Source: a bacterium
Lineage (GTDB): Bacteria > Vulcanimicrobiota > Xenobia > Xenobiales > JADMJV01
Length of the DNA: 64,000 nucleotides
NCBI GenBank assembly: GCA_030149525.1
Contig: JASBRJ010000206.1
Span: 20,460-84,459, forward strand
Direction of reading: 5' to 3'
Shown: positions 2,646-62,853 of the stretch, one piece after another
How the letters are laid out: each line of letters opens with the position of its first letter
How positions within the stretch are numbered: the stretch's first letter is position 1
The notes under the pieces: model-generated
What the model was told of the DNA's origin: nothing
The model's database searches: none
Seen by the model: only the letters and a program-made list of their open reading frames with translations
Translations under genes and position numbers: made by a program

Positions 2646-2669
2646 TCCTCTCTTCTCAACCACGAGAAA

Positions 2670-2700
2670 CTCCTCGGCTCTCAGGGTCGGGGAGTTTTTT
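2670..2700 (+). terminator. Rho-independent terminator downstream of fusA
   Basis: GC-rich imperfect hairpin (CTCCTCGGCT...GGGTCGGGGAG) followed immediately by TTTTTT, 25 nt after the fusA stop. Confidence 0.55.
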
Positions 2701-2723
2701 AATTTTCTTCGAAAGGTGTTCGA

Positions 2724-3101
2724 GTGTTAACCGATGCCGAGGCAAAACTTGCCGATTTTGAAAGCAAAGAATTTTTTACTCCGTTCGAACTGGAGCACAT
2801 TCTGCAAATTCCACTTTCCGACATAGTGGAGATCTTCGCCAAGGTGCCCAAAGTCGCCAAGCCAGCGGGATGCTTCAAAGGAGACGAGTCTCGAGATATG
2901 ATCAAAAAGTGGGCCCGGAAGAGAGTTTATGCCGACATCATTGCCCGCAATGCGGTGAATGCCGCCCCTGAGATTCGACGAGCCGAAGATAACGGAGAAC
3001 CTCTTCAGATCAAACTGAGAGATGTCACTCATGAGAAAGACTTTTCGGTGAGATTTCCCGGTGATCTGAAGAGATACTTGGACAGTCTTTCCAGCGGTTA
3101 G
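2724..3101 (+). CDS. Hypothetical protein (GTG start)
   Basis: 125-aa ORF downstream of the fusA terminator with a coding-like composition and no recognisable motif. A longer ORF runs antisense to it (2727..3167), so which strand is real is not certain. Confidence 0.4.
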   Translation: MLTDAEAKLADFESKEFFTPFELEHILQIPLSDIVEIFAKVPKVAKPAGCFKGDESRDMIKKWARKRVYADIIARNAVNAAPEIRRAEDNGEPLQIKLRDVTHEKDFSVRFPGDLKRYLDSLSSG

Positions 3102-4477
3102 GGCAGGTTTGTCCGGCCGTGTTCGGAGCCGTAGTAGAAGGACGCGTCTTTGGCAAGTTCTTCCCACTTTTTCCGATACAGCCAGGGATTCTCGTCTTTG
3201 ATCGGTTCTTTTTTCACCTGCTGAGTCCAGGCTTCGGTCAGACAGTCGGCCTCATCAAAACAAGCTTGTGAGAAAGCTCGTCTCTCATCGACACTTTTCT
3301 CCCGCACGCTCGCCGCTTTCTCTTGGAAGCGCGTTTCTAGAGCATCGCGGGCGTCTTTGAACACCGGTAGTCGGTGGGTGTAGTCTTTGAGAACTTCTCG
3401 GTGGAGTCTCTCATGCTGCCACCAGAGCGTACTTTGATTGAACTGGCCGGTGGGGAATTCACCTATGGAGGGGATCCCCGTGTCGAACCAGAGAGGTTTG
3501 AAGACGCTTGTACAGGGAGCGGAGGTTCCGCTGAGCCAGTGGGTTGGGTTGGTGCTAGTGAGGTGACTCACCATGGAGCCTGTGGTCTGGTCGGTACGAA
3601 TCGGCCCAAAGCCCGTGTGCATGCAGACGGAATTGCCGAAGAGGCCCCGAGCCGGTGAATAGCCGGCACCCGCACCGGGTCCGTGATCTCTTAGCATCGC
3701 CATGACACTTGCCACAGTGATCCGACCTTTCTGCTCGGATAGAAGCTGAGTCAGGCGATTTTGTCGACCATCACCTCGTCCGAAGAAGGTGTAGAGATAG
3801 CTTGGATAGAGCCCTTTACCTCCGTAGCTCTTTTTGAAATTGAACGGCTTGCCGGGCTTGTGCCAGCCTTGAGATTCAGCGAAGCTGATGGTGTCTTTGG
3901 AGATCATGTCGTAGGTGGTTGTGATGGTGAGGGTGTTGGAGGTGGCTCTCACATCTCGCACTTTTTCCGCTACCCAATGCTTGCCGGCTGTTTCCAATAT
4001 CCATACCTCATGGTGATCGGCTATGAGAAAGGAGTTATGGTAGTAGAACTGGGTTCGGAACCCGCAATTGCCACCTTGTCCGAAGGTTTCAAGCAAGTTC
4101 GTAATCACCTCAACTGCCTGGATGGAGTTCTCAGCCCGTTCCAGGGCCAACCGGAGGAAGTCCATACCGGTGAGTCCGGGCCCGGTTTCATAGGGCACTT
4201 TGGTGAAGACAGCCGTGTTTCCGATGGTCAAACCGTGTTCGTTGGTGCCCATTTCTGCTCCCCATAGCCAGCAAGGCCGGGCCAATACAACGGAGTAGGT
4301 GTGAGGCACTTGAGGGATGCTCACGTAAGTGCACCGGACCACCGAACCATCCGGATGATCGGCTGCGGGAACCTGCTCCAGGGCGTGGGCTTCATTGGGG
4401 GCCCGGTCGCTGTTCTTTCCAAAAATGACGACCCCGTCTTTGGTCGAGTTCCCCAGGGCTACAACGTTATTACACAT
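3098..4477 (-). CDS. C69-family dipeptidase (N-terminal Cys nucleophile hydrolase)
   Basis: The product begins Met-Cys (MCNNVVALGNSTKDGVVIFGKNSDR), the hallmark of Ntn-hydrolase C69 dipeptidases, and has typical length. The start was taken at the Met directly before the Cys. Confidence 0.75.
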   Translation of the reverse strand: MCNNVVALGNSTKDGVVIFGKNSDRAPNEAHALEQVPAADHPDGSVVRCTYVSIPQVPHTYSVVLARPCWLWGAEMGTNEHGLTIGNTAVFTKVPYETGPGLTGMDFLRLALERAENSIQAVEVITNLLETFGQGGNCGFRTQFYYHNSFLIADHHEVWILETAGKHWVAEKVRDVRATSNTLTITTTYDMISKDTISFAESQGWHKPGKPFNFKKSYGGKGLYPSYLYTFFGRGDGRQNRLTQLLSEQKGRITVASVMAMLRDHGPGAGAGYSPARGLFGNSVCMHTGFGPIRTDQTTGSMVSHLTSTNPTHWLSGTSAPCTSVFKPLWFDTGIPSIGEFPTGQFNQSTLWWQHERLHREVLKDYTHRLPVFKDARDALETRFQEKAASVREKSVDERRAFSQACFDEADCLTEAWTQQVKKEPIKDENPWLYRKKWEELAKDASFYYGSEHGRTNLP

Positions 4478-5942
4478 CTTTATCTCCAAACCAACCGGTC
4501 TCAGGTTGCAATTTCGTGGTCATAAAATCGATGGCTTCTCCCACCGTCTTGAGCTTGTGAATGTCGAACTCGGCTTTCATCAGGCGAGATAGTTCCGTAA
4601 GCTTTTCTTTCAAAGGCAGCTGTTCATCGAGTTTCTGGGCGGTTTCATAGCAAGCGATGAGGCCGAGAATGTCACGCTGAAGATGTAGGAGCGGCGCCTT
4701 ACGATGCTCGGGATGAGGGGCGTAGGGCAGCGGTCGAATTTCGGGTCTGTCCGTGCGAGGCGTCTCAAGAGCGAGTACCTGTCCGAGACCGTTGGCAGCA
4801 GCGTCGCGCCTGGTGAGCGACTGGAGGTCCCACTTTTGAGTGACCGTCTTGATTATAGATGTGTGGCAGAATTCGGTATGAACCACCTGTCCTTGAGGAA
4901 TCCAGGGAGACACCAGAATGGTGGGCACTCGAACTCCCAAGCGATCAAAGCAGAACCCTTCTTCTCCCGACCGGCACTCTGCATCGGGTGGTACGGTGGC
5001 AGGGGGCAGGACATGATCGTAACAGCCTCCGTGTTCGTCGAAGGTGATCACGAGAAGGATTTTCTCCCATGCTTTTCCGTTTCGAATGGACTGGTAGATC
5101 TCGTTGACGAGAATTTCAGCTGCAGACACACTTGAAGTGACCAGAAACTTCTTATCTAAAGGGGGATGGGCGTCGTTATGGTCAAGGAAGAAACGAGGCT
5201 CAATGAGGCTGAAGGGGGGGAGTTCGCCGGACGCGGCATCTTTGTGAAAGTCCCCCATTTTCTTGAAGCGGCTATGAGGCATTTGCCACAAGGTGGGCTG
5301 GACCAACCTGGTTAGGGGCATAATGTCTAGCTCATCGTAGTAGATATGCCAAGCAAGACCTGCTTCTTCCAATCGGTTGAAGATGGTGGGCGAGTCAGTG
5401 AGCAACCACTTCGGCTCCGGACTGTTGTTCACAAAACCTCTTGAAGTGGAAGCCACCGAGAAGCAACGGTTGCAAAGCGTTTGGGAGGGCACCGATGAGA
5501 ACCATCGGTCGCACACGGCGTAGTGGTGGGCAAGGCCGCTCAGAACCGGCAAGCTGTCCGGGGTGAAGGCGTTCATGATGACTTGATAGTCGTTTCGGTT
5601 TGGCGTCTTTCCGGAGTGAGTTTGCAAGACCTTGATGTAGTCTTCCACAAACCCTTCCATGGTGTCCCCGCGTAGTTGGCGGACCACATGCTCAAACTCT
5701 TCGCCGGGATCGGGGCTGGGCTCCGTCATCACCCTACCCTTTGCTGCGGGGATGCGGGTGCCGGTCAGAGGGTCGGGATTGCTGAGGTTTTTCCCGCTCA
5801 GGCCGTCGAAGGTCTGGCCCGATGGAGGTGACTGGAACGGCGGTGCGTTTTCTGGGTCGTAAAGCCACCCTAGAACATTGTCAAAGGACCGGTTTTCTAA
5901 CATGAGAACAACGATGCTCTCGATCTTGGTCAGATTGGACAA
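4470..5942 (-). CDS. Phosphoesterase-family protein (phospholipase C / acid phosphatase AcpA-like)
   Basis: The N-terminus IESIVVLMLENRSFDNVLG is the signature of the phosphoesterase (PLC/AcpA) family; the product is about 490 aa. Confidence 0.75.
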   Translation of the reverse strand: MSNLTKIESIVVLMLENRSFDNVLGWLYDPENAPPFQSPPSGQTFDGLSGKNLSNPDPLTGTRIPAAKGRVMTEPSPDPGEEFEHVVRQLRGDTMEGFVEDYIKVLQTHSGKTPNRNDYQVIMNAFTPDSLPVLSGLAHHYAVCDRWFSSVPSQTLCNRCFSVASTSRGFVNNSPEPKWLLTDSPTIFNRLEEAGLAWHIYYDELDIMPLTRLVQPTLWQMPHSRFKKMGDFHKDAASGELPPFSLIEPRFFLDHNDAHPPLDKKFLVTSSVSAAEILVNEIYQSIRNGKAWEKILLVITFDEHGGCYDHVLPPATVPPDAECRSGEEGFCFDRLGVRVPTILVSPWIPQGQVVHTEFCHTSIIKTVTQKWDLQSLTRRDAAANGLGQVLALETPRTDRPEIRPLPYAPHPEHRKAPLLHLQRDILGLIACYETAQKLDEQLPLKEKLTELSRLMKAEFDIHKLKTVGEAIDFMTTKLQPETGWFGDKDV

Positions 5943-6071: not shown

Positions 6072-7706
6072 ATGAATATTTTGATCGTATCCTCAGAAAT
6101 GACGCCGTTTGCTAAGACGGGAGGTTTGGCCGATGTGGTGGGAGCCCTTCCCGCAGCCCTTCAAGCCCAGGGACATACCGTTTGGGTTGTGATGCCGAAG
6201 TACGGGCGTATCGATACCTCCAAATTCGGAATCGAAGCCTATCACGGACCTATGGGCGTTTGGATGGGGGGCAACCAAGAGTGGTGCTCGGTTCATCGCA
6301 CCCTCCTCGATGATGTGCCGGTGCATTTTGTCGAGCATTCCGAGTTCTTCGACCGCTCCGGACTCTATAACGATCAGAACAACCAGGACTATCCCGACAA
6401 CCCCCGGCGATTCGGTTTTCTGTCAAAGGCTGCTCTCCAGTTGTGCGTCGATAAGGGGTTCAAACCGGACGTTGTTCACGCCAACGATTGGCAAACGGCG
6501 CTCTTGCCCGCCTATCTCAAGACCTGGGACTGGAAAGGCACGGTTCTGGAAGAGGCAGCCTCTCTTCTCACCATTCATAACATGGCCTATCAGGGGGTTT
6601 GTTCCAAGTCTCATTACGATTATCTGGGCCTGAGTTGGGAGAGTTTTCACAGCGGCGCCTTCGAGAGCTTGGGCTCGGTCAACATGCTCAAGGGCGGCAT
6701 CTTCTACGCCGATTGTGTGAACACGGTGAGCCCCACCTATGCCCGAGAAACTTGCACCGATCAGGGACACGGTCTGGAACCCAATCTTTCGGCCAAGGGC
6801 GACCGCTATTTTGGAATTCTCAACGGGGTCGACTACTCGGTTTGGAACCCGGTTACCGACCCGTATCTTCCCTACAATTACACTGCTGAGTTTCCCGCAG
6901 GGAAGGTTCTTTGCAAACAGGCAGTTCAGCGCACTTTCGGCCTCCGTCAAGACGATAATGTGGCTCTCTTGGGCACGGTCGGTCGGTTGGCGGACCAGAA
7001 AGGCCTGAATCTGCTGGCCGATGCTCTCGAGGGTTTGCTCAACACCATGCATGTTCAGGTGGTTTTATTGGGTAGTGGTGATAAGCATCTGGAGCACCGG
7101 TTTGGGGAGCTCGCTCACCGATATCAGGGCCGTTTCGGAACTTACTTCGGCTTCAGTGAGCGGTTGGCTCACCTCATCGAAGCAGGGAGTGACTTCTTCT
7201 TAATGCCCAGTCTGTTCGAGCCGTGCGGACTGAATCAACTCTATTCACTCCGTTACGGGACCTTACCCATTGTGCGCTCGGTGGGCGGTTTGAATGACAC
7301 GGTAGAAAACTATCAGGAAGACTCCGGTCTTGGGACCGGTTTTAAGTTCTACGACTTCAATCCCGATGCTCTCTACGGCACCATCGGTTGGGCTGTGAGC
7401 ACTTACTACGACAGACCTCATCACATCAAAAAGATGAGAGAGGCCGCCATGTCGCGCCGCTTCACCTGGGAGATGAGCGCGGTTCATTACCAGAAGGCTT
7501 ATCAGGTCGCCCAGAGTGTGCGGTCCGAGGAACTCGCAGAGCTTGAAGAGGCGGCGAAGGCGGCAGCCGAGGCGGAGGCTGAGAAAAAGGCTAAGGCGGA
7601 GAGCGAAAAGCAAAAGGCTGCCAAAAAGAAGCCTGCCAAAGAGTCCAGGAAGAAAAAAGCCAGGGGCAAGTCAAAATCTCAAGTCAAGAAGAAGGTTAAG
7701 GCCTAA
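6072..7706 (+). CDS. glgA: Glycogen synthase (ADP-glucose-type) with a Lys-rich C-terminal tail
   Basis: MNILIVSSEMTPFAKTGGLADVVGALP is the canonical GlgA N-terminus (KTGGL motif), with a GT-B fold through about residue 475. The last ~65 aa are low-complexity E/A/K-rich (KKAKAESEKQKAAKKKPAKESRKKKARGKSKSQVKKKVKA). Confidence 0.9.
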   Translation: MNILIVSSEMTPFAKTGGLADVVGALPAALQAQGHTVWVVMPKYGRIDTSKFGIEAYHGPMGVWMGGNQEWCSVHRTLLDDVPVHFVEHSEFFDRSGLYNDQNNQDYPDNPRRFGFLSKAALQLCVDKGFKPDVVHANDWQTALLPAYLKTWDWKGTVLEEAASLLTIHNMAYQGVCSKSHYDYLGLSWESFHSGAFESLGSVNMLKGGIFYADCVNTVSPTYARETCTDQGHGLEPNLSAKGDRYFGILNGVDYSVWNPVTDPYLPYNYTAEFPAGKVLCKQAVQRTFGLRQDDNVALLGTVGRLADQKGLNLLADALEGLLNTMHVQVVLLGSGDKHLEHRFGELAHRYQGRFGTYFGFSERLAHLIEAGSDFFLMPSLFEPCGLNQLYSLRYGTLPIVRSVGGLNDTVENYQEDSGLGTGFKFYDFNPDALYGTIGWAVSTYYDRPHHIKKMREAAMSRRFTWEMSAVHYQKAYQVAQSVRSEELAELEEAAKAAAEAEAEKKAKAESEKQKAAKKKPAKESRKKKARGKSKSQVKKKVKA

Positions 7707-8397
7707 CCGGGTTCTCAGGATTGAACCAGCGATAGGAGCGCTCTAATCCGCTACGGACCTCAGCTATGCAATCGGGTTTGAGTGTCCATTCGATGATGGT
7801 GATATCGGCCTCTGTTCGACGCCTCACCTCTGAGGGAACCTGTTCGGTGCGAAGCCTCTCCATCTGTTCACGGCAGCCCAGGCGATGTTCGGTGTGGAAT
7901 CTCTCGCTCACAAACATAACGATCTCATCAGGGTCCCAGGCCGGCTCAAAATCTCCCGGTGGATCCCAGTCTATCTCGGTGGCGGCGATGCCGAAATTTC
8001 TTCCTAAATAGGCGTCGCCGAAGACCGTAGGGAACTGTAGAGCTATTTCTGAGAAAGACTGAATCGTGGCCTCGGCGGTGCACTCAGAGTTGGGAAAAAA
8101 GTGATAAAGAAATCTCACCCAGTCTTCGCGCACGGTGAGAATGAGATGATGCTTTACATTGCTCTTACCGATCCTGCCGACCCCTAGAAATTCCGTGGTG
8201 ACACAACCTCGCGCGACTAATTGATCAGAGGTTTCCTCTGGTGTGCCGATGTCGGTGAAGCCTGAGCTATCGTCACCCATCTTCGCCAGAGGCGACCACC
8301 AACCATGTTGCTCGAGAAGGGTCAGAAGCCGGATGGGCCATCCGTCCGCCACAAGTGGAGGAGGACACCGAACGTCGGCTTCGAGAGTGAGCCTCAC
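7696..8397 (-). CDS. Hypothetical protein
   Basis: 233-aa ORF whose stop overlaps the subtilase gene start by 4 nt and whose start overlaps the glgA 3' end by 11 nt on the opposite strand. No recognisable motif. Confidence 0.45.
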   Translation of the reverse strand: MRLTLEADVRCPPPLVADGWPIRLLTLLEQHGWWSPLAKMGDDSSGFTDIGTPEETSDQLVARGCVTTEFLGVGRIGKSNVKHHLILTVREDWVRFLYHFFPNSECTAEATIQSFSEIALQFPTVFGDAYLGRNFGIAATEIDWDPPGDFEPAWDPDEIVMFVSERFHTEHRLGCREQMERLRTEQVPSEVRRRTEADITIIEWTLKPDCIAEVRSGLERSYRWFNPENPVRP

Positions 8398-10445
8398 TCC
8401 TTATCGGCCTGCCCGAACACTTGCAGGCTAGAGAGAGAAATTCCGTTCTTGGCCCGTCCGATGCGACTGTTCACACTGAATCTAAGCTGAACGGTTTTGC
8501 CTTCATAAGCGGAAAGATCCAGTCCGTGAGTCTTCCAACCGTCGGAGTTCTCGATTCGCTCCAACTGACTCCAACGTCTGCCGTCGGTGGTGACTTCCAG
8601 TTCGGCGGTGTTGGCAATGGCGAGATCGGCACTCATCTCAAACTGGAGAAACGGGTTCTCGTGTTTGCTCAAGTTGATACGAGGACTGGTGAGAGTGGAG
8701 GTGGACTTGGCGCGACTGCCGCGGGGCGGGGCGGAGGTGAAAACCTGTCCCTTGATGGGGTCTTTGAAGCTTCGAAAATCCCCGTCGATATCAAAGCTCG
8801 TTCTAGAACTGGTAAAGTCTTCGTTGAAGAGTAACTCCGCTTTGGGGAGAGTCACCTGCTCGGTGCTTACGAGAGGAGAGCGATTACCGGCGTTGTCCAC
8901 GGCTTGAACCGAGAAATATACCTGACGCTCCTTAAGGCTTGGAGTTTCCTGGATAGCGTAGCCGTGACGCTCGTTAAGCGCGTTCTCAGAGCCTGTCAGG
9001 AAAGGTTTTGCCTCTCGAAAGTTCTCTTCGGTGATCGGCTTTTCGCTCATCCGAATTTCAACAGTTGAGACCGGGGCTCCCTGATCGCCGTCGTCGCCGG
9101 GGGTCAGCCAGGAGAGAGCCGCGCCGCGGTAGTTGAGGTCCTCTATCTGAACCTGCTTGGGAGAGCCCGGAGCTATGGTGTCGTTCTCAAGCGATGCAGC
9201 GGCGTTCACGCGACCGTCGGAGACACTGATGTCGGTGAGATCATGAACTTTGTCCGAGCCGTAGATTATGCGATCTTTGATCTGTTGAGCGGTGGCGTCG
9301 GGGTATTGAGAAGCCACCAGGGCCGCTACACCCGAGACATGGGGGGTCGCCATGGAGGTTCCGCTGTAGGAGGCGTACTTACCGTTGGGAACGGTGGAGT
9401 AGATGTCTTTACCAGGTGCGGCTACGTCCACTTTGCTGGCGCCCCATTGTGAAAAAGCAGCGCGCTCGTCTCGGTGATCGGTGGCTGCCACCACGAGCAT
9501 GTTATCCACGTCGTAATTGGCGGGGTAGTAGTCGATGGCGTCGTTATCCACTTTGTCGTTGCCGGCGGCCACTACATGGAGGGCCTCACTTGCGGCAAAG
9601 GCCTCTTTCACCGCTTCATTGTAAGGGCCGCCGCCCCAACTGTTAGAGGTGATGTCGGCTCCCATTTTGTTGGCGTAGAGAAGGCCTCGCAGGATGGAGG
9701 CCGATGTGGACTCGCCCTCGTCGCTGAAGATCTTAACAGCCATCAGTTTTGCTTTGGGACTCACTCCCACCACTCCGATGCCGTTATCACCCACCGCACC
9801 GATGGTCCCCGCACAGTGAGTTCCGTGGGAGTGCCCGTCCATGGGATCACCGGTCTGGGCGAAAGCGTTGTAGCCATGAACATCGTCGACAACTCCGTTG
9901 CCGTCGTTGTCGATTCCGTCGCCGGGGATCTCGCCCGGGTTGGTCCACATGTTGGCTGCCAGATCGGGATGGGTGTAGTCGATTCCGGTGTCGATCACGG
10001 CGATGAGAGGACCGTTGGGAGAGTTGTCGCCCTGGGTGATCTGCCAGGCCTCAGGGGCGTTAATATCGGCGCCGGGTTTCCCGCCGGTTTGCCCTTCGTT
10101 GTGAAGGCCCCATAGCTTCGAGGTGAGATCATTAGGTAGAGCGGTTGGCTCGGTGGCTTGAAACTCAGGCAATCGGTACAGGTAGTTCGGTTCAGCGAAG
10201 GCGATGCGCTCGTCTTGCTTCATCTGAGCTAAAGCGTCGTTCACATCGACGCCCTGGGGAAGCTTCACCCGTACGATATCATGGGACTCGTTGGAATTCA
10301 GCGACGCTTCACTCAACTCGAATCGCTCGACAATATTTGAGCCATATTCGGAGAGAATATCGTCGCTCAGGGTATTGCCGGAGTTCTTGAGGCGGAGGAG
10401 GACTTCGCCGGGGACATACTTTGGAGTTCGGTTTGTAAGTTTCAT
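8394..10445 (-). CDS. Subtilisin-like serine peptidase (S8 family) with pro-domain and C-terminal beta-sandwich domains
   Basis: Catalytic triad motifs DTGID (Asp), HGTHCAGTIGA (His) and GTSMATPHVSGVAAL (Ser). An N-terminal I9-like propeptide and a ~250-aa C-terminal extension flank the protease domain. Confidence 0.85.
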   Translation of the reverse strand: MKLTNRTPKYVPGEVLLRLKNSGNTLSDDILSEYGSNIVERFELSEASLNSNESHDIVRVKLPQGVDVNDALAQMKQDERIAFAEPNYLYRLPEFQATEPTALPNDLTSKLWGLHNEGQTGGKPGADINAPEAWQITQGDNSPNGPLIAVIDTGIDYTHPDLAANMWTNPGEIPGDGIDNDGNGVVDDVHGYNAFAQTGDPMDGHSHGTHCAGTIGAVGDNGIGVVGVSPKAKLMAVKIFSDEGESTSASILRGLLYANKMGADITSNSWGGGPYNEAVKEAFAASEALHVVAAGNDKVDNDAIDYYPANYDVDNMLVVAATDHRDERAAFSQWGASKVDVAAPGKDIYSTVPNGKYASYSGTSMATPHVSGVAALVASQYPDATAQQIKDRIIYGSDKVHDLTDISVSDGRVNAAASLENDTIAPGSPKQVQIEDLNYRGAALSWLTPGDDGDQGAPVSTVEIRMSEKPITEENFREAKPFLTGSENALNERHGYAIQETPSLKERQVYFSVQAVDNAGNRSPLVSTEQVTLPKAELLFNEDFTSSRTSFDIDGDFRSFKDPIKGQVFTSAPPRGSRAKSTSTLTSPRINLSKHENPFLQFEMSADLAIANTAELEVTTDGRRWSQLERIENSDGWKTHGLDLSAYEGKTVQLRFSVNSRIGRAKNGISLSSLQVFGQADKE

Positions 10446-13539: not shown

Positions 13540-13680
13540 AGCCTCTTCGCTTAGTGGGAGGTCACGAGCGGCCTTTATACTTTGGTAGGTCTTGGGGGTG
13601 TCGAGTGGGGTGAGGGCACGTGTTTGACCGGTTGTCCTAGGGGAAAGGGCGTCTGCGAACAGAGTGAAATGCTTGAAGTC

Positions 13681-16644
13681 ATGCGTAAATTGACAATCCT
13701 CATTTTCCTTCTTCTGACTCTTTGCGTCTCAGGCCAAGAGCAACAGCCGCCGGAGTGGTATCTCCTGGTGCGAGAGGCTGTCAAGCTCAAGGGCTACGGC
13801 TTTCTGGACGATGCTCTGGCCAAGATGAAGGAAGCGGTCATTTCGGCCGAAGCCAGTGGAGACATCCGAGCTTACGGGGCTGCCATCAATAATCAGGCCG
13901 TGCTGCAGATGGAGGTGGGCGAGTACGCAGGGGCCGATGAGTCCTTAAGAATCGCCCAGGGGATCTACGAGCAGAACCTCGGACCAAATCATGAACATAC
14001 GGCCAAAGTTTACAAAAATCGAGGGCTCTGTCTTACCCAATTGGCGCGCTACCAAGAAGCGGAGTCGTTCACTAGGAAGGCTTTGGATGTCTACCTGGAG
14101 ATGGATGTGGCTCGAAATCAGTGGCAGACCCTGGAGTTGATGTCGGAGTTGGCCGAGATTCTCTATCACCAGGATCGTCTGGAGGAGGCTCGAGACCTTT
14201 TTAAGGAAGCTCTTGAGAAATTAGAGGCGGGCCCGTCTCTTGCCAGCGCGCAATCGGGATATGCGCAGGTCCTTGATGCTCTGGGAGACACGGATGGGGC
14301 GGAAAAGCTCATCGCGCTTGCTCAGGCCTATTGGGAAAACCATCCAGAGAAGCCGACCTCACTAGCCGGAGTCCTCAAGTCGAGGGCAAACTTGTTGCGC
14401 CAACGAGGTCAGGTCGCTCAGGCGGAGTCGCTTATGAAGAGAGCTCTTCAGGTGTATGATAAAGCTCTTCCTGGAAGGCCGGGTCGAGCCAAATATCTCA
14501 ACGATTTGGGCTTGCTCTACTCGGGCCTTCGGGACTACGAGAAGGCTGAGGATTTGGTAGCGGAGTCGGTGCGCATTCATGAGAAATGGATGGGCGCGGA
14601 GCATCCCGAGACGGCCACGACCCTTGGAGTGCTGGCGGGCATCTATTCTCAGATGGGGAGACTAGAAGACTCGGAGAAAATGTATCGACGAGCGCTGGCT
14701 ATCAACGAGAAAGTTTACGGAAAGAATCACACCGCAGTGGCCACGGACCTGAACAATCTGGGAGTTGTTCTCCTTAACGCTAAAAGAGCCAAGGAGGCCG
14801 TGCCTCTCTTGCAACGAGCTCTGTCTATTAAGAAGGCCTCGAAGTCGGAAGATCTCGCCACCATGACCGGTGTTCTCGGTAGTGCCTACCATGAGATGGG
14901 GGATTTGGGCAAGGCGAAAGAACTCTTTCTACAAGCTTTGGATATGGGAGATTCCGAGACCAGAGCCATCATGAACAACAACCTTTCTTACCTCTCCATT
15001 GATGAAGGGGATCCGGACGCTGCTTTGGGGTACGCCAAGAAAGCTTCGCAAGCTCAATTTGAGCAATTGAAAAAAGTCTTTTCTTTCACGTCCGAGAGGC
15101 AGCGGCTGGCTTTCAAAAAGGACCTCGTTCCTTACGGCCTGTTCGCCTCATTGAACCAGCCGGAAGCTCTGATGCAGGCCGCCCTGAGATTCAAAGGCGT
15201 TGTTCTCGATTCCATAGCTGAGGATTACCGTTTGGCAAGCCAGGGTGACGAAGAGCTCAAAGCCCGTTTGGGCCGCCTTCGAGATGTTAAACGTGAACTT
15301 ATGAAGCTCGATGTCTTGGCAAAACGTAGCCCGGAAGAGCAGGCGAAATTCAAGGAACTTCAACAACGTTTGGAGGAAGACCAAGCTTATCTTGCCCGTC
15401 GAGTAAGTCGTTTGGAGGAAGGCCGAGCCGCCTTTCGAGTCACTCCCAACCAGATCCAGGCAGCTTTACCAAAGGACTCCGTTCTGGTGGAATTTCTCTA
15501 TCACGGCTTTTACTTTGGTAAGAATAAGAGTGAGAAACGCTACGGTGCGCTTATCCTGGCAGCCGATGGGCCCGTTCAGTGGGTGGAGTTAGGAAGCGCT
15601 GCAGAGATCGAATCCCTTGTAGGTGACTACAGAATGGCCATGCGCGGAGGGAGTGCTTCATCTCGTGCCAGTCGTCCCTCCCAGCCGGGCGTGGCTAAGA
15701 GTCGAGGAGAGGAGCAATTGAAGAAAGCGTATGACAAGCTATGGCAGCCGATCGCCGACTTGCTTCCCCAGGGGACGAAGCGGGTGATCTTAAGCCCTGA
15801 CGGCGACCTTAACTTTGTCTCTTTTACAACGTTGCTCAGCTCCAACGATAAGTTTCTAGGCGAGTTGTTCGATATCTCCTACGTTTCTTCGGGCCGAGAT
15901 CTGCTCGCCTTTGGTTCGAATTCGAACACTGAGAAAAGCTCGTTTCTTCTTGGCGCCCCCGACTATCGGGTTGCCGATTCTCAACGGGAGGAGAAGGCCT
16001 ACGAGGTCACGCTTTCTCCTCTACCTGGGAGCGCACAGGAATGTCAAACACTTGAGGCGCTGCTAAAAGCCAAAGGTTTTCAACCCCGGCTGGTCACAGC
16101 TCAGAAGGCTCAAGAAGAGGAAGTCTCCAGGCTCCAGTCTCCTGAGATTGTCCATCTAGCAACTCACGGTTTTTTTCTGGATGAAAAGTTCGGTCATAAC
16201 CCCATGTTGAGAAGCGGCCTTGCCCTCTACGGTGCTGAAACAACGCTTGATGCTTGGCAAGACGGCAAGGTCCCCGAATCCGGGTCCGATGGAGTGCTCA
16301 CCGCGCTTGAGGTAACCGGTCTCAATCTCACGGGAACAAAGGTTGTGGTCCTCTCCGCCTGCGACACCGGTCTCGGCGAGAGCCAAAAAGGGGAAGGGGT
16401 CTTGGGTCTACGTCGTGGTTTCGTTCAGGCTGGCTGTCGAAATCTTGTCTTCACTCTATGGCCCGTCGCCGATCAGGAAACCGCAGAATTCATGGTGGAC
16501 TTTTACGACAGCCTGCCCGAAAAAGGGGCGGTATCGTCGCTCAACACCGTTCAAAGAGACTGGCTCGGCAAACTGAGAGAGCAGTATGGAAGCGTTATGG
16601 CGGCCAGATTGGCGGGGCCGTTTGTGATCTCTTCCAGGGAATAG
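13681..16644 (+). CDS. Secreted TPR-repeat protein with a C-terminal CHAT (caspase-like) protease domain
   Basis: Signal peptide MRKLTILIFLLLTLCVSGQ, then about 10 TPR units (repeated xYxxALxIxEKxxGxxHPxTA patterns). The C-terminus carries the CHAT His-Cys dyad: VHLATHGFF ... VVLSACDTGLGE. Confidence 0.85.
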   Translation: MRKLTILIFLLLTLCVSGQEQQPPEWYLLVREAVKLKGYGFLDDALAKMKEAVISAEASGDIRAYGAAINNQAVLQMEVGEYAGADESLRIAQGIYEQNLGPNHEHTAKVYKNRGLCLTQLARYQEAESFTRKALDVYLEMDVARNQWQTLELMSELAEILYHQDRLEEARDLFKEALEKLEAGPSLASAQSGYAQVLDALGDTDGAEKLIALAQAYWENHPEKPTSLAGVLKSRANLLRQRGQVAQAESLMKRALQVYDKALPGRPGRAKYLNDLGLLYSGLRDYEKAEDLVAESVRIHEKWMGAEHPETATTLGVLAGIYSQMGRLEDSEKMYRRALAINEKVYGKNHTAVATDLNNLGVVLLNAKRAKEAVPLLQRALSIKKASKSEDLATMTGVLGSAYHEMGDLGKAKELFLQALDMGDSETRAIMNNNLSYLSIDEGDPDAALGYAKKASQAQFEQLKKVFSFTSERQRLAFKKDLVPYGLFASLNQPEALMQAALRFKGVVLDSIAEDYRLASQGDEELKARLGRLRDVKRELMKLDVLAKRSPEEQAKFKELQQRLEEDQAYLARRVSRLEEGRAAFRVTPNQIQAALPKDSVLVEFLYHGFYFGKNKSEKRYGALILAADGPVQWVELGSAAEIESLVGDYRMAMRGGSASSRASRPSQPGVAKSRGEEQLKKAYDKLWQPIADLLPQGTKRVILSPDGDLNFVSFTTLLSSNDKFLGELFDISYVSSGRDLLAFGSNSNTEKSSFLLGAPDYRVADSQREEKAYEVTLSPLPGSAQECQTLEALLKAKGFQPRLVTAQKAQEEEVSRLQSPEIVHLATHGFFLDEKFGHNPMLRSGLALYGAETTLDAWQDGKVPESGSDGVLTALEVTGLNLTGTKVVVLSACDTGLGESQKGEGVLGLRRGFVQAGCRNLVFTLWPVADQETAEFMVDFYDSLPEKGAVSSLNTVQRDWLGKLREQYGSVMAARLAGPFVISSRE

Positions 16645-17443
16645 GTCAATAGCACCTCGGCCTTGGTAGGTGGTTTGTTCTACAATTTACGGGTGAACCG
16701 CAACCTCATCTGGTTTGTTTTTATGATGACGAGCCCAGCGATTGCCGATGGGGGGTTGTGTTCGTACGTCAAGCGGGGACGCGATTGACAAAACTTGTCC
16801 CTAGATCTTTGCCAGTGCATTGGCTCGTCTACGAACTCCGCAGCACCGGCACACCGAATCTCGGCGTCGAATTTCGTTGAAATGACCCGGCATTAGGCAC
16901 TCAATGCTCCTTGAGCTTCGGGCATCGACACAACGGATTTCATAGACGAGCCAACGCCCGACAGTTTGAAATGAATCAGGCGAGCGAAATCCGCACTGTC
17001 GAGGCTGTTGACTTAGTCTACTCTTCGAGCACCAGGTCCCGTCATGAGTCTTGTTCATTATTGTCCGCACAAAATCGTTCAATTGAATATTCACGAAAGC
17101 GGAGCGTTCCTACTGGACAATGCCTCAAAATTGCCCGACTTCGTGCGAACAAAATGCTTTGCGCCTCACTCGGTCCGCAAGCTTTGGCGCCACGAAGTCT
17201 AAATCAACAGCCTCTGTCATCCTACCTGTTATCGAAGATCAGGTACCCTGGCGCCAATTACGAGAACTTTGCAGATTTACAACTTCGTCTTTTTATAGGG
17301 GGTAAACCAGAGCAAGAATCAGCCTCCTTGATGTCACGACCGATGGAGATTACGACGCGTAATCCGACCAATCCCACCCGCATCGGGCTTTGTACGAGTT
17401 TTGCTCTCCACCGCTCCAGCCACAAACGGAGTGCTACCGAAGG

Positions 17444-18811
17444 TCATTCGAAGTCCAGCCAATAGGCTAGTTCCAGATCTACCTGCTGATCGAGGCGTCG
17501 ACGGTATTGGTCCAGGAACAATAGCGTTCCATCTGATTGTCGTTCGATTTTGAGTAGGCCGTCGTGAGTGTTCTTGTGGCAGGCTGAACAGAGGCCGAGA
17601 AGATTGTAGGGTGCCGTCTTGCCGCCTTCGGCAAAGCTCTCCAGGTGATGGATATGAAGCCAAATTTTATTGGGGCACCCCGGGGTGCTACAACACCAGG
17701 AGTCCCGTCGAAGGATTTCTGTTTTCTGGGATTTAGTAGTATGTCGGGAGTCTATATTGAAGCGGACTCGGGTGCTCGACCAGGGATTATTGAGTCGAAC
17801 ATATTGGATCCGGTCCGGGTCCATCTCGGAGAGAAAGTCTGTATCGAAATTGGCCAGTCCCAAGGCTTGGGAGAGAAGTTCGGCGGCGCGGGCTTTATGG
17901 ACCCGGCCCGGGTCCAAGTCACCGGAGTCGGCGAAGCTCAGAGTCGCGTCTTTACCGCCAGTCGCGAGTCGGGCTTCCTTAGTGCCGAGCAGACTGCCCT
18001 TGCAAGGGGCGGCTTCGGTCGAATCGACCCGGTCCGGGTCCAATTTTCCGTCTTGCTCACGCTCTATCAATCCAATCTCGGCGGCCAACTCCCGAGCCTC
18101 AGCCACTAGAGGAATCTGCCGCGCCCGCTCCGCCTGCAAATCCTTATCTGCCTCCTCCCGAACCTTGGCCAGAGCCTTTTCGTCCAAAGGCGCCTTTGCC
18201 AAAAGCGATACCAGCGCATCACCAATCACCTCGGCCTTGGTCACAAGTCTACCCCGGGCAATCGAGTAAGCGCGGGTTGCCTCTTCCAGCATTCTGTACG
18301 CTTGAGGGCTCAAAGGGCAGCGAAGAAGCGAGTTGTAGCCGTTGTCCTCCAAATCCACTTCTCCGGGAACGGCTCCAGGTGGAGTCTTACTGACCAGCAT
18401 CTGAATCTGCTGGTCGTTATATTTTTGAGCGAGTTGCAGCCATAACTCTTCTGTTTCCGGACTGGCCTTACGAACAATTTCTCTCAGCTTGCCCCAGGAA
18501 ATCCGCCCCTCTTCTGCCACCAAGGAAAGTTCCGGCAACCTCAGCAGTTCCCGTGCCACCCGCTTACAGTCGTTCGCCTCTTTCCTGTTCACCCCAAGCT
18601 TTGCTACCGCATAGTGTGTGGACGAACAACAGCCGAACTTCTTGAAGTCCTCGGTTTCTTCGATGGCCAGCAAACACCGACCGAGGGTCAGCTTGCATGC
18701 CGTCAGAGTTCCAACGGCACGTAAGGCAAGTGGATGTCGTACACGGTCTCCCATGGAAACAACAGTATCAATTCGAAATCGTCGGGGGTCGATGGCTGAG
18801 GCGCTGATCAT
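17444..18811 (-). CDS. DUF222-HNH endonuclease (REP13E12-like)
   Basis: The C-terminal HNH motif WCCSTPGCPNKIWLHIHHLESFAEGGKTAPYNLLGLCSACHKNTH carries its Zn ligands and catalytic His. The N-terminal ~300 aa has the DUF222-like RLPELSLVAEEGRISWGKLREI segment. Confidence 0.8.
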   Translation of the reverse strand: MISASAIDPRRFRIDTVVSMGDRVRHPLALRAVGTLTACKLTLGRCLLAIEETEDFKKFGCCSSTHYAVAKLGVNRKEANDCKRVARELLRLPELSLVAEEGRISWGKLREIVRKASPETEELWLQLAQKYNDQQIQMLVSKTPPGAVPGEVDLEDNGYNSLLRCPLSPQAYRMLEEATRAYSIARGRLVTKAEVIGDALVSLLAKAPLDEKALAKVREEADKDLQAERARQIPLVAEARELAAEIGLIEREQDGKLDPDRVDSTEAAPCKGSLLGTKEARLATGGKDATLSFADSGDLDPGRVHKARAAELLSQALGLANFDTDFLSEMDPDRIQYVRLNNPWSSTRVRFNIDSRHTTKSQKTEILRRDSWCCSTPGCPNKIWLHIHHLESFAEGGKTAPYNLLGLCSACHKNTHDGLLKIERQSDGTLLFLDQYRRRLDQQVDLELAYWLDFE

Positions 18812-19084
18812 ATCATGGCTCCCAAGAGGCGAATTTTCAGTCGTTATAGGCCGACAAAACAGGCCTCAAAAAAACTCGTTGCGTCAACCCTAAATCATTC
18901 AACGAAAGCCTGTTGGAACCTCGCAAAGAAACTTGTATTTAAGCCATTTTATGGGAGTTATTGAGGTGAGATTTAGACCCTGGGAAAAGAGGTTAGAGAC
19001 GCTCGGTCCATTTCGCTTTCAGAAATTCTTTGTCCGTCATAGCACTCTTTAACCGATTCGATGTCGCCCGCCCATAGACCCGTT

Positions 19085-20131
19085 TCAATTAAGCCGAAAC
19101 AGCCGGCCATCCAACACGAAAAGAACCCCATCTCGACCAAGGGCGAGGTTCGTCGGACGCGCATTGCCGAGCCCCAGGTGAAAAGTTGGCTCGCCACCTC
19201 GATCAAGTCGCACGACCCCACCCGGACAGGAGACGAAGGTTTGTCCGGTCGAGTCTGAGACGGCTTGCTCCAATCCAAACTTTGGGGAAACGTCGAGGGG
19301 AGTTTGCCAGAGCTCGCGGCCGTCGCGAGCTATTAGTGCGAGACTTCCCCGGCGAACCGCAAGCCATCCATCGATGTGCTCGGACAATGTGGCCGCGAAA
19401 GGCAAACGGAGAACCAAATTGCCGAACATGTCGAAGACGTGTGTCTGCTTTTCATTCTGGTCACTGTAGGCTATTTCACCAAAGCGATTGACTACGACCA
19501 GGGAGTCGGAATACTGGAGGTCCGGTCGCCTCCATTTGACCTTTCCGTCCTGGTTGCAGAGTGTCGGTCCAGAGAACGCGTAGCCGGCGATAGCGAGGTC
19601 ACCGTTGGCGAGTACTGCCGGTGGTAAGACATCGTATCCAAATGCGCCCAACTCACGGACTGCGTCGTCCTCGTCTACCCAAATCTGACCGTCGATTCCG
19701 CTAAAGAGGATTCGCCCGTCCGCTAGTGCTGGAGAAGGTCCGGAATCGTCGAGACCCGGTACGGGAAAATGCCAAGTCCTGGAGCACACTCCGGATAGCG
19801 AGAAAAGGTAGGAGGTTCTTCGTCCGTTGACCACTGCCCAGCCTCCTTTTAAGGCCGCCGGAGCCGAGCAGATTTCGTCGATCTGTCTCTTCCAGAGCAA
19901 GCGCCCCGATGCGTCCAGGCGAGCTAAGCTGCCGTTTCCAGCAACCAAGAGATGTCCGTCACAAGAAATAACCACGGAGCCGTCAAAGTCAATATCGGCG
20001 ACCGGACTGACACTTGTTGGATGAGACAATAAAAGGGGAGAGAGGGCTGAATTTCTTGGGTCTCGCCCTGTTCGAGGCCAATCGGACTCTTCGAGTTGGA
20101 AGTGGGCTGAGCCCTGGGTTTTAGAGGACAC
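19085..20131 (-). CDS. PQQ-like beta-propeller repeat protein (BamB-like fold)
   Basis: Repeated G-x-L/V-x-A-x-D-x-x-G-x-x-x-W blades (DASGRLLWKR, ARDGRELWQT and others). Confidence 0.55.
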   Translation of the reverse strand: MSSKTQGSAHFQLEESDWPRTGRDPRNSALSPLLLSHPTSVSPVADIDFDGSVVISCDGHLLVAGNGSLARLDASGRLLWKRQIDEICSAPAALKGGWAVVNGRRTSYLFSLSGVCSRTWHFPVPGLDDSGPSPALADGRILFSGIDGQIWVDEDDAVRELGAFGYDVLPPAVLANGDLAIAGYAFSGPTLCNQDGKVKWRRPDLQYSDSLVVVNRFGEIAYSDQNEKQTHVFDMFGNLVLRLPFAATLSEHIDGWLAVRRGSLALIARDGRELWQTPLDVSPKFGLEQAVSDSTGQTFVSCPGGVVRLDRGGEPTFHLGLGNARPTNLALGRDGVLFVLDGRLFRLN

Positions 20132-20256
20132 GAAATAGCTTCATTGCGATGCCTGAAGCTGGCAGTGAGAGATGCTACGAGGGTAACAGACTTCATAGCC
20201 TGCCGGCAAGCAACTAACCAAGCAGGTCCCCCACACCCAACCAAAAATCCCAAAAA

Positions 20257-62406: not shown

Positions 62407-62853
62407 TTACTGAAGTTTTTCGGCGGCTGCCTGAACGGCTTCAGGGTGGCGAAGCATTTCCGAGAGCGACATTCCGGTGGCGGCTCGGAGGATACCGAGA
62501 TGTAAGTTGCCGGGAAGTCCTGCAGCAAAGTCCATGCCGTAGGTGTCTCTCAGGGTTTCGATGTGGGTATCGCCTCGTTTGGCACGGATACGACCGTCTT
62601 GATTTCTATGGCGACCGTTGAGCCCGGGCTCGTGGGTCACTTCGGGGTCGGCTTTCACCATTTGGGACAGACTCATGCCTCTCAGTTCGCGGAGAGTGGA
62701 TAGGTGAGTGTCTCCCCGCCTGTCGGAAATCTCACCATACTTGTCTTCCAGAGTGGATAGGTGAGTGTCGCCGCGCTTCTGGCGAAGCTGGCCATTGGTT
62801 TTATTTCTGCTCCGGATGCCTCGCATACCGGGCGCATCGTGTTGAATTCGCAT
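62407..62853 (-). CDS. RGD-repeat hypothetical protein
   Basis: Three copies of [KR]RGDTH[LI]xTL[ER][DE]xYG and two GMSLS[QE]M segments; the DNA shows matching ~24-nt direct repeats. Confidence 0.5.
   Translation of the reverse strand: MRIQHDAPGMRGIRSRNKTNGQLRQKRGDTHLSTLEDKYGEISDRRGDTHLSTLRELRGMSLSQMVKADPEVTHEPGLNGRHRNQDGRIRAKRGDTHIETLRDTYGMDFAAGLPGNLHLGILRAATGMSLSEMLRHPEAVQAAAEKLQ

Follow-up and report, generated by a model that had tools for sequence, protein, structure and literature searches.

The REP13E12 repeats of Mycobacterium tuberculosis, into which phiRv1 integrates, are dispersed elements of approximately 1.4–1.6 kb that consist essentially of one open reading frame (ORF), encode a C-terminal HNH domain together with a helical N-terminal domain, and occur in several copies per genome without terminal inverted repeats. 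Other points of comparison are the free-standing HNH homing endonucleases of phages, solo genes in variable contexts that join a DNA-binding module to an HNH domain and leave conversion tracts, and the small extragenic palindromes known as ERIC/IRU, Correia, MITE, and REP/BIME elements. REP13E12, or the “13E12 repeat family”, is cited as a repeat class in PMC10589994 (with Gordon et al. 1999). Here, we describe a locus within 64,000 nucleotides of contig JASBRJ010000206.1 (assembly GCA_030149525.1; this whole stretch is hereafter called the window) where an HNH endonuclease gene (17444..18811, minus strand; 455 amino acids, ATG start) and a convergent TPR-CHAT gene (13582..16644, plus strand; 1020 amino acids) enclose a gap of 799 bp (16645..17443) without any supported ORF. 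The reading that we favor, with a probability of roughly 0.6, is that two unrelated kinds of repeat lie side by side between convergent genes, namely a selfish-type HNH gene and a patchwork gap that bears hairpins.

Judged by its sequence, the HNH gene appears to behave like the mycobacterial REP13E12 repeat and is probably a remote relative of it. It shares the features listed above, from the dispersed one-gene layout and size to the several copies per genome and the lack of terminal inverted repeats, and its N-terminal domain can likewise be tied to DUF222 through intermediates. The encoded protein comprises an N-terminal ParB-like helix-turn-helix (HTH) domain (approximately residues 10–250), a low-confidence linker with DPxRV repeats (approximately residues 250–355), and, after this linker, a C-terminal zinc-binding HNH domain in which every invariant Cys, His, and Asn position of the motif is retained. 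The Pfam HNH model (PF01844) is matched above threshold by this protein (26.1 bits, cutoff 21.4) and by all 35 of 35 family members, so that the name DUF222-HNH used in a preliminary description of this DNA fits the nuclease half. For the other half, the link to DUF222 is remote and runs through intermediates only: unlike REP13E12, the protein stays below the threshold of the Pfam model (PF02720; 15.9 vs 24.4 bits), which reaches E < 0.01 in just 2 of the 35 family members. A profile search with the N-terminal domain gave 7198 representative clusters at E ≤ 1e-3. We scanned 31 of the lowest-ranked among the 150 hits listed (E ~1e-23 to 1e-30), and found Pfam DUF222 in 7 (best E 4.4e-8) and HNH in 25; these DUF222-bearing hits suggest that the family belongs to the DUF222-HNH superfamily as a divergent branch, one missed by the Pfam model, with an N-terminal domain that would be only remotely related to DUF222. 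Three of the 31 scanned homologues (P0339, P0343, and P0356) also carry RuvB_N and AAA domains, which suggests that the HTH(-HNH) module may be fused to or inserted in RuvB-like ATPases.

A second difference from REP13E12 is the linker with its variable number of DPxRV motifs. The DNA that encodes them is a near-perfect palindrome (GGACCCGGNCCGGGTCC), and the palindromic 19-mer TGGAYCCGGYCCGGGTCCA is present in three copies on the minus strand (17805-17823, 17898-17916, and 18024-18042). The number of 19-mers differs among copies of the gene, one of which (contig L002, see below) has an additional unit of approximately 126 bp, and the plus (antisense) strand over this region is unusually structured (z-scores of −4.3 and −3.7). 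Furthermore, the nearest named relatives belong to Planctomycetota and not to Actinobacteria, and nothing hints at prophages attaching to the repeat: integrase genes were not seen close by, and IMG/VR has no member of the family. As for other nucleases, NCBIfam yields IscB as the single match of the HNH domain, and IscB is also the best match of this domain among solved structures; the match to NF040563 covers the HNH region only and reaches 31.3 bits against a cutoff of 175. The locus also resembles IscB with its omega RNA (HEARO) in that a structured noncoding region adjoins the gene, but the protein has neither RuvC nor PLMP domains, and the structured region is not common to other copies of the gene and has no Rfam match. 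The HNH gene is not an IscB-type system.

The evidence that the gene is a repeat comes from copies on other contigs, which we refer to by locus number. On L002, homology to the window runs from 18924 to 17378 at 88–91% identity and on L236 from 18950 to 17377 at 95.7% identity, while the flanks of both copies are unrelated to the window and the shared DNA ends sharply on both sides. These common limits (18924-18950 and 17377-17378) therefore define a unit of approximately 1.57 kb (17377..18950, minus strand) that consists of approximately 140 bp of upstream leader or promoter region plus the HNH ORF almost to its ancestral end. With 97.7% identity, L001 (ERZ23796855, 7.8x coverage) is syntenic to the window, and its sample also yielded L002 (8.4x). 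The L002 gene is 88% identical and has different neighbors: upstream, a member of the histone deacetylase family and a gene that faintly matches Tricorn_N, and downstream, 2 other genes (see below). L236 provides a third context with a DSP-type phosphatase gene upstream, and its sample likewise contains a syntenic contig, L235. The repeat is thus present in at least three genomic contexts within the same marine Phycisphaerales populations. Further copies, for which the preliminary description had suggested a search, therefore do exist in the same samples as the syntenic contigs, but within the 64-kb window neither the HNH gene nor the gap has a second copy. The suggested alignment with related strains revealed no empty site.

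Copies of the HNH gene also exchange sequence in gene-conversion tracts. More than 400 bp in the middle of the unit are 100% identical in the window, L001, and L002, the rest being 88–91% identical between the window and L002, and the 5′ end of the L001 copy agrees with L002 and not with the window. Divergence between the window and L001 varies along the locus, from 0.5% in the CHAT gene over 2.5% in the HNH gene to 14% in its upstream spacer. Between the window and L025, a 95% identical contig, synonymous divergence (dS) is 0.164 in the HNH gene compared to 0.084 in a neighboring gene, a twofold difference. Many contigs end inside the HNH gene: 7 of 10 anchored in the CHAT gene and 7 of 10 anchored in a DsrE-like gene do so, all at 17683-18556.

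The surroundings of the other copies have features of their own. Upstream of the L002 copy lies approximately 1 kb of ORF-free DNA with two tandem arrays of 63-nt period (2533-2866 with 5.3 copies and 3146-3342 with 3.1 copies) that are absent from the window locus. Downstream (5165-5922), the final base of the HNH stop codon is also the first base of an ORF of 108 amino acids, behind which lies an SMI1_KNR4/SUKH gene. The phosphatase gene upstream of the unit on L236 (153-668) matches Pfam Tc-R-P. The L002 and L236 units hence adjoin genes typical of polymorphic-toxin/immunity neighborhoods, and the window copy adjoins a TPR-CHAT protease gene.

The copy in the window is old and slightly damaged. 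A 22-bp insertion straight after the TGA stop codon (17422..17443, minus strand) splits the ORF from a conserved C-terminal tail, which persists out of frame as a remnant at 17350..17421 (minus strand; GWSGGEQNSYKARCGWDWSDYAS followed by a stop). By tblastn, this remnant corresponds to residues 503–525 of the L002 protein (74% identity, E 8e-10) and it agrees with the family consensus GWxGxExDSYxxRxGxxDW; the window copy thus appears to have lost the conserved 23-residue tail through the insertion. The L002 copy lacks these 22 bp, whereas every syntenic strain has them, and so does the copy on L236. The ratio of nonsynonymous to synonymous divergence (dN/dS) between copies is 0.11–0.14 (about 0.12), which indicates purifying selection and, on that basis, a gene that is probably functional. 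The preliminary description had treated the 800 bp next to the gene as part of the element, but the DNA common to the copies ends approximately 67 bp beyond the HNH stop codon, and these 67 bp are the gene’s own frameshifted tail. It had also proposed that the locus looks like an insertion; more than 20 contigs reach the site from either side, all of them with the HNH gene and none with an empty site, and the copy is therefore old and fixed rather than recently inserted. With the CHAT protein as query, neither intermediate relatives nor an empty site came to light, as there was no match between 37% and 100% identity.

The wider family has a similar distribution. Representative genomes in GTDB (Xenobia, Vulcanimicrobiota, and others) contain 2–5 family copies per metagenome-assembled genome (MAG), in one case including a tandem pair of HNH family genes. 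Homology in multicopy MAGs does not extend beyond the gene and the DNA directly flanking it (up to approximately 300 bp). Across 22 loci, no neighboring gene is conserved. We found no family member among IMG/VR viral contigs, no integrase or prophage gene in any locus examined, and no transposase or integrase near the HNH gene. The notion of a REP13E12-like selfish element in the preliminary description is therefore borne out as far as a dispersed, converting repeat in at least three contexts is concerned, but not in its mycobacterial affiliation or link to phages.

A selfish mode of persistence could work as follows. The HNH protein would bind a specific DNA site via its HTH domain and nick or cut there, recombinational repair from a copy-bearing template would then copy or homogenize the HNH gene, and the gene would in this homing-like manner spread or persist as a selfish nuclease gene. 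This would liken it to the free-standing phage HNH homing endonucleases, with which it shares the DNA-binding module joined to HNH, the solo gene, the variable contexts, and the conversion tracts. Unlike those, the window gene does not lie in a phage, intron, or intein, its copy is fixed, and no cut site or cognate empty allele has been identified for it.

Alternatively, the HNH genes could form an ordinary family of host paralogues, for instance DNA repair or restriction-type nucleases with a ParB-like DNA-binding domain, that arose by a few duplications, are homogenized by conversion, and are neither selfish nor mobile. We consider this unlikely, but several observations favor it and at the same time weigh against a selfish gene. 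No empty site is found in any contig that reaches the locus, and mobility is therefore inferred from the distribution of copies and not observed; the unit ends show neither terminal repeats nor target duplication; transposase and integrase genes are missing nearby and family members from viral contigs; and the strong purifying selection (dN/dS 0.11–0.14) together with fixation would also fit a host gene family. To our knowledge, no mechanism of movement has been described for any DUF222-HNH gene. What speaks against mere paralogues is that the copies have sharp common boundaries, including approximately 140 bp of noncoding upstream DNA, in otherwise unrelated contexts, and that the family is spread patchily among phyla with 2–5 copies per MAG, a tandem pair, and no conserved neighbors. 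In addition, a truncated allele with the identical 22-bp insertion occurs in two contexts, which implies copying or conversion of the defective form.

The second half of our reading concerns the 799-bp gap. As noted in the preliminary description, it lacks a convincing ORF: it contains only mechanical ORFs of 184 amino acids (16911..17465, plus strand) and 97 amino acids (16801..17094, minus strand) that have no match in Pfam, NCBIfam, or PHROGs, and a 5-bp insertion in strain L027 frameshifts the longer one. The compositional difference described earlier is real but mild: the guanine-cytosine (GC) content is 0.511, where the window averages 0.551, a value among the lowest 4.6% for segments of 799 bp. 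Two hairpin repeats and remnants of genes, by contrast, had not been foreseen. The gap is a patchwork of the severed HNH tail, a stretch that is read through in L025, and two hairpins that we call H1 and H2. On the HNH side, approximately 95 bp (17350-17443) consist of the 22-bp insertion and the severed tail, which is the share of the gap that belongs to the HNH unit. Next follows a spacer of approximately 135 bp (17215..17349, minus strand) shared with L025, where a gene call runs through it into unrelated, coding-looking DNA; in the window, the L025 reading frame is interrupted by a TAA at 17277-17279 and homology stops between 17224 and 17213. Beyond it lie H1 (17001..17214, minus strand) and H2 (16810..16963, minus strand), followed by the 3′ flank of the TPR-CHAT gene (16645..16809, no strand assigned), where no feature was identified and which is identical in 10 of 10 other strain contigs. 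Nine other strains share the sequence of the whole gap, the only deviation being two bases of the H2 stem at which the window alone differs.

Searches for other relatives of this DNA were mostly negative. When the ORFs of the fetched loci were compared to the gap by tblastn, only the HNH tail was matched, aside from the near-identical L001, and a search with the L025 junction peptide gave no candidate. No match was obtained by blastn against phage and plasmid collections. An Rfam scan, as proposed in the preliminary description, turned up nothing credible, with only chance-level miRNA/snoRNA matches in the gap and L057 (E ≥ 0.11); the entire 64-kb window has neither a tRNA nor an Rfam family at gathering score.

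H1 is a hairpin of 214 nt with approximately 66 stem pairs and a perfect 16-bp terminal inverted repeat (GAGGCTGTTGAYTTAG, at 17001-17016 and 17199-17214), and H2 is a hairpin of 154 nt with a basal stem of approximately 30 bp. Both are individually 18–24 kcal/mol more stable on the minus strand, with folding energies of −88.2 vs −64.6 kcal/mol for H1 and −76.8 vs −53.2 kcal/mol for H2, where the two strands form 12 vs 2 G.U pairs; a 200-nt segment over the H2 region (16800-16999) has a minus-strand z-score of −4.5. Folded as a whole, 16780-17260 reaches −189 kcal/mol on the minus strand (z −6.2; 24 G.U pairs and one A.C mismatch) compared to −147.5 kcal/mol on the plus strand (z −3.0; 8 G.U pairs). 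A sliding scan from 15400 to 19700 identified the hairpin region as the sole strongly structured region of the minus strand. This strand asymmetry points to selection on a single-stranded minus-strand form, either RNA or single-stranded DNA (ssDNA), and speaks against a neutral DNA palindrome. It is thus as single strands that H1 and H2 would act, the simplest possibility being RNA stem-loops at 3′ ends that serve as terminators or stabilizers between the convergent genes.

Relatives of H1 were sought by scanning metagenomes and viral contigs with the 16-nt terminal repeat, which mostly gave single matches at chance level, and real extended homology was found in only three contigs, which are unrelated metagenome sequences. 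L057 contains a homologue of 160 nt that keeps the terminal inverted repeat with 1 mismatch and has the same strand preference (−77 vs −59 kcal/mol), and L120 and L073 contain homologues of the 5′ half of H1. All three are intergenic, on contigs with a GC content of ~0.56, and have no HNH gene nearby. Nine compensatory pair changes distinguish H1 in the window and L057, and a segment of approximately 20 nt in one arm and its partner segment are either jointly present or jointly absent. In L057, the homologue (411-569) precedes a gene for the RNA ligase RtcB (586-1977) by 17 nt and has the same orientation, with a receiver-domain regulator encoded nearby on the opposite strand; its position next to rtcB could be chance or that of a leader element. 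Resemblance to 6S RNA or Y RNA was considered for H1, whose long hairpin is interrupted by internal loops and whose L057 copy has this position upstream of rtcB, and was dropped given the lack of Rfam support, the inconsistent neighbors, and the multicopy, chimeric behavior of H1. A reading of the hairpins as integron attC sites was dropped as well since no integrase gene was seen.

Two strains connect H1 with rearrangements. L027 is 98% identical to the window over the CHAT gene and fully identical from 16600 to 17080, but the 5′ half of its H1 (in minus-strand reading, 17085-17214) bears indels of the L057 type, and past the intact terminal repeat the contig continues into unrelated genes. 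The simplest reading of this variant would be recombination between two H1 copies. Both L025 and L027 change their arrangement at the outer end of H1 (the junction of 17214 and 17215) or no more than approximately 10 nt away from it, possibly because H1 copies recombine and thereby supply homology for rearrangements. The DNA beyond the junction in L027 (8602-11028) encodes proteins of 147, 111, and 464 amino acids without any Pfam match above threshold, the latter two genes overlapping by 4 nt, and genes for Uma2, bestrophin, and a protein kinase come after them. L025, in turn, has two additional called genes of 97 amino acids (7187-7480) and 181 amino acids (7947-8492) that flank the DsrE-like gene on either side and have no aligned counterpart in the window, indicating further small-scale variation of gene content near the locus.

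By analogy, H1 would belong to a dispersed family of intergenic hairpin repeats comparable to ERIC, Correia, or MITE elements. Like these and REP/BIME elements, it is an imperfect palindrome (of 160–214 bp, with 16-bp terminal inverted repeats) that is extragenic, located between convergent genes, present as diverged copies in other intergenic sites, and associated with rearrangement breakpoints. It differs from them in its apparently low copy number (one per 64 kb), inconsistent target-site duplication, and the strong strand bias of its stability, as well as in that no parent transposase or RAYT gene was seen, and it is much longer than REP elements. A number of observations count against this half of our reading. 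Only one copy of H1 lies in the window, a second, short-type copy being inferred from the chimeric L027 alone; its flanks are GACA on both sides in the window and ATGTAT in L057, direct repeats that differ in length and could both be chance, so that transposition is unproven. The covariation is based on two effectively independent sequences, with 5 of 55 predicted pairs broken or gapped in one of the three sequences. For H2, no homologue was found elsewhere, and its basal stem has a 2-nt mismatch in all strains but the window. Finally, the acting form could be RNA or ssDNA alike.

It is also conceivable, if improbable, that H1 and H2 represent an undescribed class of strand-specific hairpin elements of marine Planctomycetota, either small structured RNAs or ssDNA mobile elements, whose ends are preferred sites of rearrangement. 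Such a preference would explain why the structural differences of two strains fall at the outer end of H1.

We regard it as highly improbable that the 800 bp are the decayed pseudogene of a vertically inherited gene. Approximately 70 bp are indeed the frameshifted tail of the HNH ORF, and 17215-17349 is read through by the L025 gene call, the frame being stopped and cut short in the window. Together, though, such remnants cover only ~230 of the 799 bp, which also answers the possibility of a conserved pseudogene raised in the preliminary description. The other ~570 bp have no significant protein similarity to family libraries or to ORFs of the fetched loci except L001, are dominated by two strand-specific hairpins with a homologue elsewhere, and are 100% identical across strains from different samples. 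Hardly credible, finally, is that the structured 475 nt (17258..16784, minus strand) are one large noncoding RNA that works with the HNH protein as an omega-RNA-like guide or scaffold, which would suit their position directly 3′ of the HNH ORF on the same strand, their very stable fold with strong G.U strand bias, and the best match of the HNH domain to IscB, but is largely refuted by lack of co-occurrence given that L002 and L236 share nothing past 17377, that no comparable hairpins follow the HNH genes in 11 loci scanned (L002-L012), and that the H1 homologues in L057, L120, and L073 lack an HNH gene nearby, and is further opposed by a protein that has no RuvC domain and matches IscB in the HNH domain only (31 vs 175 bits), and by the absence of Rfam matches to HEARO or omega RNA.

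Read as a selfish-type HNH gene next to a hairpin-bearing gap, the locus overturns no current view, but it extends the REP13E12 type of one-gene repeat beyond Actinobacteria to Planctomycetota and several candidate phyla, and the tethering of a ParB-like HTH domain to an HNH nuclease offers a structural clue to how such genes recognize DNA. A distant second lineage with clear conversion tracts and defined ends could help to design tests of cleavage and homing for such repeats. On the practical side, the repeat causes breaks in the metagenome assemblies of a marine lineage that is abundant. For Planctomycetota, the hairpins are a small addition to what is on record about intergenic repeats and about rearrangement at the strain level.

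Regarding the wider surroundings, the MAGs that encode the nearest named relatives of both the HNH and the CHAT protein are labeled Phycisphaerales, and the near-identical contigs originate from marine, TARA, and hydrothermal-vent metagenomes. On the far side of the HNH gene, the long intergenic gaps pointed out earlier as 275 and 126 bp measure 273 bp (18812..19084) and 125 bp (20132..20256). Elsewhere in the window, a gap of approximately 435 bp between large ORFs (2660-3100) contains several inverted repeats with a strong terminator-like hairpin at its left end and a plus-strand fold z-score of −2.9. At 62693-62795, two 46-nt direct repeats (beginning AGAGTGGATAGGTGAGTGTC) follow each other at 57 nt from start to start with 78% identity.

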